Assembly (NCBI GenBank): GCA_964426755.1
Contig: CAYRRR010000005.1
Location: 1 to 43,763 of the forward strand
Length of the DNA: 43,763 bases
Direction of reading: 5' to 3'
Source: an uncultured Candidatus Saccharibacteria bacterium
Lineage (GTDB): Bacteria; Patescibacteriota; Saccharimonadia; Saccharimonadales; JAGQNJ01
The position numbers and the translations under genes were made by a program. Below, one piece after another: positions 5,166 to 25,598 of this stretch (position 1 is the stretch's first letter; each line of letters starts with the position of its first letter). Under the pieces are notes generated by a model, which had not been told where the DNA came from, made no database searches, and was given only the letters and a program-made list of their open reading frames with translations.

Positions 5166-5525
5166 TTATGCTGCAGATCCGGACTTGGAAACGTACCATA
5201 CTAAAATAAGAATAATAGCTAATGTTAGCAGCACATCCCGCAGAGTTAGTTGAGTAATTGATTGAATAATTAGAAGTAGTACGGGCAAAACGCTTAACAC
5301 CAACGCCAGCCATCGACGCACACCCGTCTTAAGGCTCAAAAAACGCCGAAGCGCTATATTTATGCCTGTATAAAGAACAAAAAATATTAAGATAAACGGC
5401 ACAAGCATAAAAATAACCGGAAGGTTATCAGGATGCACTGCTACAAAAAAACTCACGGTTAAAAAAAGTAGAAACAAGTAACCTATAAGACTTTTTCTGG
5501 AAGATTCCATATATACATTATCCAT
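5166..5525 (-). CDS. hypothetical 4-TM membrane protein
   Basis: 119-aa ORF with four hydrophobic segments, same strand as the ATPase. Confidence 0.7.
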   Translation of the reverse strand: MDNVYMESSRKSLIGYLFLLFLTVSFFVAVHPDNLPVIFMLVPFILIFFVLYTGINIALRRFLSLKTGVRRWLALVLSVLPVLLLIIQSITQLTLRDVLLTLAIILILVWYVSKSGSAA

Positions 5526-5542: not shown

Positions 5543-5677
5543 AAAAAGCCGGACGGCAAATCCGCTCTGTATTATTTATTACTTATGTAGCGCTTACCGT
5601 CCTGACTATGACTGACCGCTCAAATTTGCTATTCGCAAATAATGAGCGCCGACACACATTTTTGTTTTAACTCCACT
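5543..5677 (-). ncRNA. structured leader or small RNA of unknown class
   Basis: Follows the promoter. Nested hairpin CGCTCA/TTTGC-GAATA-GCAAA/TGAGCG, then GGACGGTAA..TTGCCGTCC followed by a U-tract. Confidence 0.45.
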
Positions 5678-5683
5678 GCTTAC

Positions 5684-5712
5684 AGACTACTACAAATACA
5701 CATATAAGTCAA
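5684..5712 (-). promoter_or_regulatory. sigma70-type promoter TTGACT-N17-TAGTCT
   Basis: Minus strand: -35 at 5712-5707, 17-nt spacer, -10 at 5689-5684. Confidence 0.6.
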
Positions 5713-6431
5713 CTGTATTTGTTGTACTTATTATATTTATATCTGTTATCTTTGCCAGGTAATTTCACTTTGTTGTATTTTTTTTGTTGTTATTTTAATT
5801 ACAGATACTGAAACACAAAGACCGTTTATAACAATTATGTCTTTAAATAAATCTCTTTTTAACATTAACTATTTTTATTTGCCACTTTATTATATTAATA
5901 ATTTAGTGCTTTCGTGTTAATTTTAGGACGTATTTTTTGTTAACTAGATTTTTTAAATATCAATTGTTACATAGTTCGTCATAAGAATTTGCGTAATACC
6001 CATGAGCCAGCTTGCATATAATATTTTTATTGTTTGTAAACATGAAATTTTGAACAAGTTTTTCTTTATATTAATAGAATTATTTTCCTCCGCATTTTAA
6101 ATCAATTTACAATATCTAGACCATAAAACTCAGCCTAACGCTTTGGTGGTATTATACGGCTGGTTTTAATTTTGTAATCTTGACCAGATTTTCTAGGCTA
6201 TCCTAAGCCGCAAAAAGCTAGACTCTTTCTGCATAAAATTAAGGTGCCATTTTAACATTACGATCACGCAAATTTGAGGCTCGTTTAAATAAGACAAATT
6301 GGGTGAATTCGTAGACAACTTGGTTCCATTGCGCAGTTTTATGCTCAGCACTTTTTCTAACTATAGGTACTTTGCGGCAGAATAAAAAAGAAAGTTATAC
6401 ACAGGTTTATGAAAAAACAACCATAAACTAG

Positions 6432-6460
6432 TTGACAGTCTTTTTTGTAATTTATAAGAT
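6432..6460 (+). promoter_or_regulatory. sigma70-type promoter TTGACA-N17-TAAGAT
   Basis: Consensus -35 at 6432-6437, 17-nt spacer, -10 at 6455-6460. Confidence 0.7.
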
Positions 6461-6466
6461 GTTAAC

Positions 6467-6646
6467 AGCACTTGAATAAAAAAAGTGCTCAAAAACAAAA
6501 ACGACCACAAAAACAACGGCTTCTCGCAAGCCGTTGTTCCATCAAAAGACAAAATTAAAAAATCAAAGCCTTAACAAACAACTTTCAAAACCAAACAACT
6601 ATACTCGCAAAAACTCATCGCCCTACCGCGATGAGTTTTGCTTTTG
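6467..6646 (+). ncRNA. putative A/C-rich small RNA with three hairpins
   Basis: Promoter upstream. Hairpins at 6467-6489, 6512-6538 (11 bp) and 6610-6639 (12 bp, then GCTTTTG). No ORF in the transcript. Confidence 0.55.
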
Positions 6647-6685
6647 CTTAACATTTATTGACTTGATACAATCTGCAATATCGTT

Positions 6686-8212
6686 ATGGGAGCTGGCATA
6701 AAAAGCGTACTCGAAACTGGCCTAAGCGGGCTTGTTGTTGATGTAGAGTGCCAGCTGTCGAACGGGTTGCCAAATATCATCATTGTAGGATATGCAAATA
6801 AAGCCGTTGATGAGGCAAAGGAGCGTGTCAGGAATGCCTTTGCCTCCACCTCCATTGCCTTGCCCAAAAAGCGAATTACAATTAATCTTGCACCGGCAGA
6901 CCTACCAAAAGATAGCACCAGTCTCGACCTGGCAATTGCCCTGTCAATCTTAAATTGCATGGCAGCTGTACCCTCTTTATCAAAAACCCCGATAGTCATT
7001 GGCGAACTTGGTCTTGATGGTTCCGTTCGGCCGGTGCGCGGCATCATTGGCAAAATTCTTACCGCAAAACAAAAAGGCTACACAGACTTTTTGATACCTT
7101 CTGGAAATGTACGCCAAGCACAGCTAATACCAAACATAGCCATAACCCCTATTCCATCACTGTCTGTTCTTTATCAACACTTGACCGGAAATGCTTCGTT
7201 GAAGCCAATACATATTGCCGAAAGTAGCCTTTCGTTACCCCTAGAGGCTTCTGCCGCTCTGACAACGGACTATAACGAAGTAATTGGCCAGGCAAGAGCT
7301 AAGCGAGCCCTAGAAATTGCTGCGGCTGGTGGGCACAATATCCTCCTCAATGGCCCTCCAGGGACTGGTAAAAGCATGCTCGCAAAGGCTACCGTAAGTA
7401 TCTTGCCCCCATTGGACTCAACAGAAGCTCTTGAAGTAACCCATATGCATAGCCTCGCTAGTCCAGAGTTCGATAAAATTGTTGCTTCAAGGCCGTTTCG
7501 AGCACCTCATCACAGCGCTAGCGACATTGCAATCATTGGCGGCGGCAAAAACCCTCGTCCCGGCGAGATAAGTCTTAGTCACCGTGGTATTCTCTTTTTT
7601 GACGAGTTTCCCGAATTTAGTCGACCAGCCCTTGAAGCATTAAGGCAGCCCCTGGAAGATAGGGTTATAACTGTAGCTCGTGCTAAAGATACGGTTACTT
7701 TTCCTGCTAATTTTATGCTGATTGCTACCGCTAATCCGTGTCCCTGTGGTTATTTTGGTACACACAAAGAGTGTACCTGCCAACCCCAGCAAATAGTCCG
7801 CTACCAACGCAAAATGTCCGGCCCTATTCTCGACAGGATCGATATCTTTACCGATGTTGAAAATGTTGAACATAATAAGCTTCTTGGCGACAACCGGGCG
7901 ACTGAATCAAGTAACTTGGTCGCAAAGCGCGTTCGTGAAGCCCGTAAACGTCAACAAGAGCGCTTTGGCACTACGTCAAAAACTAACAGTGACATGACAA
8001 GCACAGAACTAAGGAAACTCGCCTATTTAACTCCTGATGGTCAGAATATTTTAAACGCAGCCGCAGAAAAACTAGAGCTTTCTCCAAGAAGCTACATGCG
8101 AACCCTTAAAGTCGCGAGAACCATTGCTGATTTAGATAATAGTCACGCCATAACTATCAAGCATGTTACTGAAGCAGTGCAGTATCGCCCCAAAAAAGTG
8201 GTAATGTTATAA
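6686..8212 (+). CDS. comM: YifB/ComM family Mg-chelatase-like AAA+ ATPase
   Basis: N-terminal 'INLAPADLPKD' Lon-like domain; Walker A GPPGTGKS; 'RPFRAPHHSAS'; 'NPCPCG' Zn motif. Confidence 0.92.
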   Translation: MGAGIKSVLETGLSGLVVDVECQLSNGLPNIIIVGYANKAVDEAKERVRNAFASTSIALPKKRITINLAPADLPKDSTSLDLAIALSILNCMAAVPSLSKTPIVIGELGLDGSVRPVRGIIGKILTAKQKGYTDFLIPSGNVRQAQLIPNIAITPIPSLSVLYQHLTGNASLKPIHIAESSLSLPLEASAALTTDYNEVIGQARAKRALEIAAAGGHNILLNGPPGTGKSMLAKATVSILPPLDSTEALEVTHMHSLASPEFDKIVASRPFRAPHHSASDIAIIGGGKNPRPGEISLSHRGILFFDEFPEFSRPALEALRQPLEDRVITVARAKDTVTFPANFMLIATANPCPCGYFGTHKECTCQPQQIVRYQRKMSGPILDRIDIFTDVENVEHNKLLGDNRATESSNLVAKRVREARKRQQERFGTTSKTNSDMTSTELRKLAYLTPDGQNILNAAAEKLELSPRSYMRTLKVARTIADLDNSHAITIKHVTEAVQYRPKKVVML

Positions 8213-13676: not shown

Positions 13677-13698
13677 AAAGCCCCGAGGGGCTTTTTTT
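13676..13698. terminator. intrinsic terminator after rpmB
   Basis: AAAAGCCC-CGAG-GGGCTTTTTTT. Confidence 0.85.
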
Positions 13699-13741
13699 GT
13701 TTTAGTCACACCGCGGACGCAATAAATCGTTCACAAAATTA

Positions 13742-20186: not shown

Positions 20187-20219
20187 TGTTGTTATTATAT
20201 CATCTTCTACCCACCTATA

Positions 20220-20248
20220 TTGACACTTTGTGGGTAGATTGGTAGTAT
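20220..20248 (+). promoter_or_regulatory. promoter TTGACA-N17-TAGTAT
   Basis: Consensus -35, 17-nt spacer; divergent from tgt. Confidence 0.75.
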
Positions 20249-20275
20249 GTATTCGTTAAACGAGGCAACTCATTA

Positions 20276-20407
20276 ATGAGTAGCAACCAGCATAAGTCTT
20301 CGTTAGAGGACTTTAAGCTGTTCTACGAGGAGCTCGTGTTTACAGCCGGAAAGCGATCAGTTAACCGGTTACGAAGAACTCGTTTAACAGCGGCTGCCTC
20401 AAAGTAA
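20276..20407 (+). CDS. putative 43-aa small protein (or structured sRNA) absent from the ORF track
   Basis: MSSNQHKSSLEDFKLFYEELVFTAGKRSVNRLRRTRLTAAASK*, with GAGG upstream, its own promoter and a terminator. Confidence 0.5.
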   Translation: MSSNQHKSSLEDFKLFYEELVFTAGKRSVNRLRRTRLTAAASK

Positions 20408-20424
20408 CATTTAGGTAGCAAATG

Positions 20425-20469
20425 AAACCCTTTTGCGGTACTTGAGAGACATCGTAAGAGGGTTTTTTG
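20425..20469 (+). terminator. intrinsic terminator
   Basis: AAACCCTTTTGCGGT pairs with ATCGTAAGAGGGTTT (15 bp including G-U), followed by a U-tract. Confidence 0.8.
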
Positions 20470-20523
20470 TTTTCCCCACATATTTTCATAAGTTATCCAC
20501 TAGCATTATTTATAGCGTTATGA

Positions 20524-25271: not shown

Positions 25272-25598
25272 TTATCGTTGTCGGAACGATGAGCCGCGAT
25301 TGAAGCCGCCGCCACCGCCTGAACGAAAACCGCCACCAGATGGGCGCTCTTCGCGTGGGCGTGCCTCGTTGACGACAATTTTGCGTCCACCAAGATCACT
25401 ACCATCAAGTGCCTTGATAGCAGCTTGTGCTTCTTCAGCAGATTCAAACTCCACAAAACCAAAGCCTTTTGAGCGGCCTGATTCTCGGTCTTGGATCACT
25501 GTCGCTGAAGCAACCGAGCCGTGAGCTGCAAATAAATCTTGTAACTCTTGGTCGGTAGTACTGTAGGGTAAACCCCCTACGTATAACTTACTAGCCAT
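25272..25598 (-). CDS. RRM (RNP-1) RNA-binding protein with Gly/Arg-rich tail
   Basis: RNP-2 LYVGGL, RNP-1 KGFGFVEF, 'VVNEARPRE'; SD AAGGA. Confidence 0.95.
   Translation of the reverse strand: MASKLYVGGLPYSTTDQELQDLFAAHGSVASATVIQDRESGRSKGFGFVEFESAEEAQAAIKALDGSDLGGRKIVVNEARPREERPSGGGFRSGGGGGFNRGSSFRQR

Follow-up and report, generated by a model that had tools for sequence, protein, structure and literature searches.

What occupies the 1.16-kb spacer between two divergently oriented genes in a 43,763-nucleotide (nt) stretch of DNA from an uncultured Candidatus Saccharibacteria bacterium? The stretch is contig CAYRRR010000005.1 of assembly GCA_964426755.1; it is here called the window, all coordinates refer to it unless another contig is named, and the genome from which it comes is labelled G000. 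The initial annotation had placed an unannotated small RNA (sRNA) with its own promoter and terminator in this spacer, and our analysis indicates that the locus is very probably just that: a free-standing, single-copy sRNA gene of about 182 nt (roughly 6467-6648) with its own promoter and intrinsic terminator, belonging to a class-wide family that neither Rfam nor the papers searched contain. Transcription of the sRNA, its ends and its abundance are predictions from the DNA sequence and its comparison across relatives.

The predicted unit lies on the plus strand and begins with a sigma-70-type promoter, TTGACA-N17-TAAGAT (6432..6460), whose -35 (6432-6437) and -10 (6455-6460) boxes agree with the consensus at 10 of 12 positions, and which, judged from spacing only, is predicted to start transcription at ~6467. 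The RNA would open with a 5' hairpin, H1 (6467..6489), in which AGCACUU (6467-6473) pairs with AAGUGCU (6483-6489) around the loop GAAUAAAAA. This is followed by the invariant single-stranded motif CAAAAACAAAAAC (6490..6502), the presumed functional site, and by H2 (6512..6538), a perfect 11-bp hairpin with the loop CUCGC and a stem formed by 6512-6522 and 6528-6538. Beyond H2 extends a tail (6539..6609), which is A/C-rich and G-depleted and predicted to be unstructured; it starts with CCAU, and the 68 nt at 6539-6606 comprise 37 A, 17 C, 2 G and 12 T. The unit closes with H3 (6610..6649), an intrinsic terminator detected by a consensus scan, in which a 12-bp stem (6610-6639) with the loop CCUACC is followed by GCUUUUGCUU (GCTTTTGCTT in the DNA), and which would form the 3' end of the long version of the RNA. 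In both the minimum-energy and the centroid folds of the plus-strand RNA these three hairpins are the only structures and all remaining bases are unpaired, and the fold energy of -42.6 kcal/mol contrasts with -19.0 ± 3.2 in shuffled sequences (z = -7.3), none of 200 shuffles equalling it. The promoter match by itself is not significant, as the region holds 9 promoter-like sites against 5.7 expected; it is taken to be more than chance because the pattern TTGACN-N16-18-TANNNT recurs in all of the about 56 related loci whose upstream sequence is complete. A small protein was considered on either strand and rejected: Pfam gave no match for a 63-amino-acid open reading frame (ORF) of the minus strand (6361-6552), and the plus-strand frames are disrupted by indels among the members. 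Across the 58 aligned loci no conserved ORF runs through the sRNA, linker indels of 1-3 nt breaking every frame. The unit, which occurs once in its own 804-kb assembly, thus shows the generic attributes of a stand-alone sRNA, namely its own promoter, a Rho-independent terminator, no conserved ORF and conservation as a unit. The promoter, the three hairpins, the G-poor A/C-rich tail, the terminator and the lack of an ORF had all been described in the initial annotation; each was recovered here, and the promoter pattern and terminator are kept in relatives.

The evidence that carries this assignment is conservation. A blastn match to the unit was obtained in 59 of 61 relatives, covering 38 families of the order, with the core (6467-6538) at 80-94% identity, whereas the neighbouring ComM protein is only 50-60% identical. 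We fetched 58 related loci and aligned them with MAFFT. H1 and H2 were found in all aligned loci, and between them the stretch AAAACAAAAA, usually in the form CAAAAACAAAAAC, is near-invariant in nearly all of the 58 and predicted to be unpaired. The conserved core accordingly has three parts: H1, the invariant unpaired CAAAAACAAAAAC, and H2 with its CUCGC loop. A covariance model of this core, R1, was built with 80 positions and 18 pairs, and 77 matches were realigned with it. Of 301 genomes sampled across the class, other orders included, R1 matched 164, and in a sample of 400 genomes from the phylum it matched 17 of the 23 genomes of the order and both genomes from other orders of the class. 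The E-values of the covariance model are rough; because stricter filters were applied whenever more than 40 genomes were searched, these counts are lower bounds. Outside the class R1 gave only two borderline matches among ~375 Patescibacteria genomes. Most misses and weak matches come from a single family, f39, in which the RNA has a divergent form.

That the conserved entity is an RNA is indicated by the pattern of substitution. In the alignment fitted to R1, 96.6% of cells form standard pairs, compensatory double changes occur at 18 of 18 pairs of H1 and H2, and 0 of 500 shuffles reach the observed values; in a control with slid 3' partners only 25-51% of cells are paired. H1 shows such changes at 7 of its 7 pairs (76 sequences) and H2 at 11 of 11, with 98% of cells paired, while some lineages use an alternative register of H1 in which UGAAUA pairs with UAUUCA. 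An alignment fitted to a model is biased toward structure, which counts against taking these pair counts at face value; compensatory changes are already seen in the plain MAFFT alignment, for example at loci L010, L039, L051-L053 and L055. These data bear directly on the alternative that there is no RNA gene here and that the conserved features are sites acting at the DNA level, for instance places where proteins bind, or terminators that work in both directions within a spacer between divergent genes. H2 and H3 are indeed hairpins on the minus strand too, and a conserved DnaA-box-like site lies close by. Yet every pair of the two core hairpins shows compensatory changes, the G·U pairs are consistent with a plus-strand RNA only, being A·C mismatches on the other strand, and the minus-strand fold is less exceptional (z = -4.0 against -7.3). 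Moreover, the promoter is conserved at a fixed spacing, and the flanking genes are both directed out of the spacer, so that there is no incoming transcription in need of a terminator. We regard an explanation at the level of DNA as extremely improbable.

The family comes in two forms, which differ in what follows H2. In 11 of the 58 loci, all of them from the more distant families, a T-run stands directly after H2, so that H2 itself would serve as the terminator of an RNA of ~80 nt. In the other 47, which represent most families and include the window, H2 is followed by CCA[U/C/A], a tail of 43-87 nt and a second terminator of freely varying sequence. These 47 tails average 53% A, 26% C, 6% G and 15% T, with a median of 2 G in ~59 nt, and their sole enriched words are CCAUGAA at the start and A(A/C)CUCC near the end, neither of which is present in the window's own RNA. 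The account of the linkers in the initial annotation holds in part: they are predicted to be unfolded and their composition is kept, whereas the reiterated ACAA/CAAAAAC motifs from which it took them to be built are a matter of composition and not conserved repeats, the one conserved element being the 13-mer CAAAAACAAAAAC. In two loci, L026 and L041 (of genomes G028 and G049), the tail and second terminator together give a weak R1 match, the terminator of L026 bearing the loop ACUCGCA, and in the window's own subclade ACUCGCA recurs just ahead of H3. Because these tails resemble the core and ACUCGCA recurs, the tail may have originated by tandem duplication of the module comprising the linker and H2. 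Three loci (L033, L041 and L043) have an additional CCAUGA...UCAUGG hairpin right behind H2.

The constancy of H2 raises the alternative that the function of the RNA is centred on this hairpin, either as a protein-binding or processing element (a substrate of RNase P or of the CCA-adding enzyme, with CCA after H2 as in a tRNA acceptor minihelix) or as part of a housekeeping RNA associated with ribosomes or an RNase. The stem and the CUCGC loop are kept much more than a terminator requires, CCA[UCA] stands behind H2 in most long forms, and the ancestral place of the gene is beside smpB and, in several lineages, near ssrA. The short forms, on the other hand, have a U-run in place of the CCA; the loop is not a T-loop and, while conserved within the order, changes across the class; and adjacency to smpB is seen in a minority of loci only. 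On balance such a role appears unlikely.

A further question is whether the RNA belongs to the gene that follows it. The plus-strand side of the spacer is formed by comM, which starts at 6686, is identified by its Pfam Mg_chelatase/ChlI domain and is followed by infC, rplT and the RNase P RNA gene. In 50 of the 58 loci comM lies downstream on the same strand, 70-190 nt past H2, and it is in these loci that the initial annotation's suggested check on relatives, a search ahead of comM in other Saccharibacteria for hairpins that are conserved and joined by A/C-rich linkers, was borne out. This constancy, together with a layout of promoter, leader, terminator and gene that is typical of attenuators, raises the alternative of a cis-acting leader which controls comM by regulated read-through of the terminator. 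Against this, no antiterminator pairing is possible, the RNA upstream of the terminators being A/C-rich and constant while the terminators vary freely, and no riboswitch family matches the locus. Between terminator and comM there is, in addition, a conserved -10-like box, TACAAT in the window (6667..6672, plus strand, outside the RNA, 13 nt ahead of the comM ATG), which is kept as TA[CTAG]AAT throughout the alignment of the family. Finally, the RNA is retained without comM in L038, L047 and L049, where infC-rplT comes next instead, has the gene for transfer-messenger RNA (tmRNA) on its comM side in the loci of G055 and G056, and in other orders stands directly behind smpB. A role as comM attenuator is unlikely, to our judgement markedly so, because the RNA persists without comM, comM has its own -10-like box and there is no alternative pairing. 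Nor was complementarity of the sRNA to the start region of comM found, the duplex scan giving z = +0.5 and -0.1. The sRNA would thus act independently of comM.

The -10-like box of comM is not singular in this genome. Among the hexamers most enriched within 28 nt upstream of gene starts are TATAAT, TACAAT and TATACT, beside AAGGAG, and a Shine-Dalgarno (SD)-like word is present at ~30% of genes. Many mRNAs are probably leaderless or very short-leadered, comM with its TACAAT 13 nt before the ATG serving as an example. A separate observation on the assembly is that the gene-start regions of contigs C14, C21, C23 and C32 look far more G+C-rich than the remainder of the genome, which has 44% G+C; these may be foreign contigs or islands, in an assembly rated at 0% contamination.

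Could the RNA be a known one? No Rfam 15 family matches the locus at its gathering score; the best match under permissive settings is RF03532, with 18.3 bits against a gathering score of 100 and E = 2.1. No published description of this RNA was found in Rfam or in the literature searched. A tmRNA or split tmRNA was considered, prompted by smpB upstream in the basal lineages and by a negative ARAGORN result, and rejected, as a normal tmRNA is encoded elsewhere in the genome (G000:C1:35143-35540, 75 bits) and in relatives too. This tmRNA is found by the Rfam model (RF00023) and missed by ARAGORN, which Saccharibacteria tmRNAs thus seem to elude. In the distant relatives G048, G055, G056 and G044 the tmRNA gene lies 60-650 nt from that of the sRNA. 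Copies in phages or viruses were also sought and rejected: six IMG/VR matches to an 18-mer are chance occurrences in K/Q-rich coding sequence, R1 has no match there, and a phage collection gave no match.

What the RNA might do is suggested by other places in which its motif occurs. Within the same spacer, on the opposite strand and 430-1000 nt upstream of the sRNA, an exact AAAACAAAAA is found in 28 of the 58 loci, against an expectation of ~0.02 per locus. It nearly always stands behind a TTGAC[TA]-N17-TAGTAG-like promoter and often forms the loop of a short hairpin, whose stems vary by lineage (GUAAG/CUUAC, AUGGUU/AGCCAU, GAUCAAU/AUUGAUC). In the window this copy (5659..5668, minus strand, an exact match) lies in the 5' part of the leader of an operon that begins with a membrane-like ORF of 119 amino acids, with its end at 5525 on the minus-strand side of the spacer, ahead of a VirD4/TraG-like ATPase; the divergent promoter, TTGACT-N17-TAGTCT, and the leader RNA together span 5543-5712 on the minus strand, and AAAACAAAAA is ~15 nt past the predicted start. 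A second context is the leader of rsmH, in the dcw cluster. We took the rsmH loci from 30 relatives, of which 28 were informative, and all 28 have 2-6 exact motif copies within 200 nt ahead of rsmH, the first copy usually being the full CAAAAACAAAAAC. In 41 genomes 92 exact 13-mers were counted, of which 22 are in the sRNA and 34 in rsmH leaders (56 of 92 together), although these two places together make up far below 0.1% of the DNA of those genomes. The spacer between mraZ and rsmH in the own genome (500 nt, G000:C12:8963-9462; L086 1464-1963) is a leader in which three AAAACAAAAA copies flank a conserved GUUGACUGCUGAAUAGGUGACCUU block with an extended SD-like AGGUGA, followed by an AUG-UAA start-stop pair and then ~16 nt to the rsmH ATG. 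The same layout is seen in most of the 28 relatives, and no Rfam match was found in this spacer.

Elsewhere in the own genome the 10-mer occurs more widely, 27 times in all, with 12 of the 27 sites inside the 8.6% of the genome that lacks any long ORF. The non-ORF sites include two short 5' untranslated regions (UTRs) on contig C3, the 5' UTRs of mraZ and of an ftsL-like gene, and a hairpin loop within the window, where AAAACAAAAA(A) is held by a GGGG/CCCU stem (~20464-20473, minus strand) inside a separate promoter-to-terminator unit (20199-20469); a further AAAACAAAAA copy in the window (~13694-13703, minus strand) stands just ahead of a terminator. A general A-rich enhancer of ribosome binding was considered as an explanation and rejected, as the motif lies at -40..-1 in only 5 of 716 gene starts, where AAGGAG and TATAAT dominate. 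In all cases the motif reads in the sense direction of a transcript, and varying stems at times present it in a loop; recognition at the level of RNA is therefore most likely, and the sRNA and both leaders, those of rsmH and of the VirD4-like operon, probably bind one common partner.

Based on these observations we tentatively propose that the sRNA acts in trans as a decoy for whatever reads its motif, a reading that we hold as a serious possibility somewhat short of an even chance. The sRNA would display the same single-stranded motif as the leaders of rsmH and the VirD4-like operon, and would compete with them for one factor that reads CAAAAACAAAAAC, while the RNA would stay unfolded thanks to its A/C-rich tail, which might add weaker sites. 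The initial annotation had likewise thought of a protein sponge, and this idea is made more plausible, if indirectly, by the unpaired 13-mer shared with the two leaders; of this motif the sRNA has a single perfect copy. The reader would most likely be a protein of the kind that binds single-stranded RNA, because Hfq, CsrA and Rho were not detected. Neither Hfq (PF17209) nor CsrA (PF02599) was found in any of 31 genomes of the order, whereas control genomes were positive; tblastn was negative for both as well, and CspA too was not found by tblastn. A Rho utilisation site, suggested by the G-poor, C-containing tail, was rejected as unlikely, since tblastn with an approximate E. coli Rho query gave only a weak match to the ATPase domain and none to the N-terminal RNA-binding domain. 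The reader is unlikely to be an RNA because, antisense strands aside, there is no conserved complementary sequence.

The last point also bears on the main rival of the decoy, a trans-acting sRNA that works by base-pairing. Here the A-rich 13-mer, or the tail with the A(A/C)CUCC of many lineages, which resembles an anti-SD sequence, would pair with U-rich or SD regions of mRNAs and alter their translation or stability. The RNA has the classical layout for such a role, with a 5' hairpin, a conserved single strand and a Rho-independent terminator. In the 47 tails AACCTC occurs 10 times against 2.0 expected and ACCTCC 6 times against 0.9, and family f39 has AACUCCAC between the motif and H2. However, a seed made of A and C only is limited to A-U and C-G pairs and would be weak and unspecific, and the CUCC motif is absent from the window's RNA, which has ACUUUCA there. 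The genome holds just two other perfect 12-mer complements of the motif, one antisense to the rsmH leader and one on contig C4, neither at a gene start, and a duplex scan of 710 gene starts yielded no standout target. Furthermore, the occurrence of the motif in the same sense in two leaders suggests a common reader and not mutual pairing. We consider base-pairing possible, with a lower likelihood than the decoy. The suggestion in the initial annotation that the RNA might be a sponge for G/U-rich RNAs gains nothing from these searches, which brought up neither a conserved complementary RNA nor an outstanding target.

As the protein partner the initial annotation had named the small single-RRM protein encoded in the window at 25272-25598 (PF00076). 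It is a possible reader of the motif, for which the distribution gives no specific support. Of 401 Patescibacteria genomes 280 encode the protein, and its distribution reaches far past the range of the RNA. Within the order, 16 genomes have both RRM protein and RNA, 2 the protein alone, 1 the RNA alone (a weak match) and 4 neither (Fisher p = 0.008); all exceptions fall in family f39 and represent one or a few evolutionary events, so that phylogeny confounds the association. In most of the order both occur, and f39 genomes such as G098, G261, G321 and G388 lack a detectable sRNA as well as the RRM protein. This joint absence, confined to part of one family, is weak evidence for a link between the two.

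Several observations weigh against the decoy. The sRNA has one perfect copy of the motif, whereas the rsmH leader has up to six, the reverse of what is seen in classical sponges. Conservation of H2 and its loop goes well past the requirements of a terminator, which a decoy leaves unexplained, and the tail is conserved in composition only and not in sequence. Alternatively, the shared motif might be a site for an RNase, offer a standby site to ribosomes or seed pairing with U-rich targets.

Synthesis of the sRNA might be governed by a site that lies 28 nt ahead of the -35 box. The conserved box GTTATACACAG (6394..6404, plus strand), a candidate operator, holds a perfect DnaA-box consensus, TTATNCACA, at 6395-6403, where the window reads TTATACACA; this is the sole exact TTATNCACA match in the window. 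Of 56 related loci, ~51 have the consensus ahead of the promoter, and the conserved GTTATNCACAG box, at its distance of 28 nt, varies only at the N position of the consensus, which suggests DnaA-dependent control. The site would thereby couple production of the sRNA to DnaA, as this pattern of variation suggests. A second copy of the long box is present in the genome at C30:483, just ahead of a TATAAT. A replication origin, prompted by the 1.1-kb gap and the DnaA box, was considered and rejected: the GC skew is negative throughout the window, with no flip, and the box is single and isolated. No cluster of DnaA boxes was found in the assembled genome.

Taken together, these elements would compose a network specific to Saccharibacteria, in which a reader of single-stranded RNA, possibly the RRM protein, recognizes CAAAAACAAAAAC in the leaders of rsmH/dcw and of the VirD4-like operon, the sRNA titrates it as a decoy, and the DnaA-box-like site acts at the promoter. 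We regard the network in this complete form as speculative and rather unlikely; if true, it would tie both cell division and DNA transfer to the state of replication in bacteria that are ultra-small and epibiotic. The significance of the sRNA gene extends beyond this scheme. According to the TM7x transcriptome paper, Saccharibacteria have no validated small RNAs. Nor is any known to have been validated in other Patescibacteria. The present one surpasses the neighbouring proteins in conservation and is found in most sampled families of the class, which makes it a concrete entry into gene regulation in organisms without the usual RNA chaperones. Because natural transformation now allows some Saccharibacteria to be modified (PMC10633639), deletion, pull-down and reporter tests are feasible.

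Among the closest known systems are CrcZ, CrcY and CrcX of Pseudomonas, which sequester Hfq/Crc on A-rich 'CA' motifs (AAnAAnAA). They too are stand-alone sRNAs with unpaired A-rich motifs in which C is interspersed, and their motif likewise stands in the 5' leaders of the regulated mRNAs, as expected where sRNA and leaders compete. The present RNA differs in that it shows no homology to them in sequence or structure and no Rfam match, in the lack of Hfq in all 31 genomes of the order, and in its promoter, which is of the sigma-70 type, whereas that of CrcZ is of the RpoN/CbrB type. It also has one perfect motif copy where CrcZ has ~six; the pattern here is one invariant CAAAAACAAAAAC and a tail that fits the loose AAnAAnAA without being conserved in sequence. 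CsrB, CsrC, RsmY and RsmZ, the sponges of CsrA/RsmA, resemble it in having hairpins spaced by single strands and a terminator at the end. The likeness to CsrB drawn in the initial annotation is an analogy only, as the GGA loop motifs are missing (the loops being GAAUAAAAA, CUCGC and CCUACC), the tail has 2 G, and CsrA, like Hfq, is absent from the genomes of the order that were searched.

Two further systems lend themselves to comparison. RocR of Legionella is a highly conserved sRNA of 66 nt that acts together with RocC, a FinO-domain protein, to silence competence genes, comM among them. Here too the sRNA is very small and unusually conserved, and belongs to a naturally competent lineage, its gene even adjoining comM; no complementarity to the start of comM was found for it, however, and its conserved single strand is A-rich and not a seed for competence mRNAs. 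The RRM-domain proteins RbpA, RbpB and RbpC of Bacteroidota substitute for Hfq and ProQ. The present lineage, also without Hfq and CsrA, encodes a small single-RRM protein, which by this analogy might have the sRNA as a ligand; the protein is spread across the phylum and the RNA is confined to the class.

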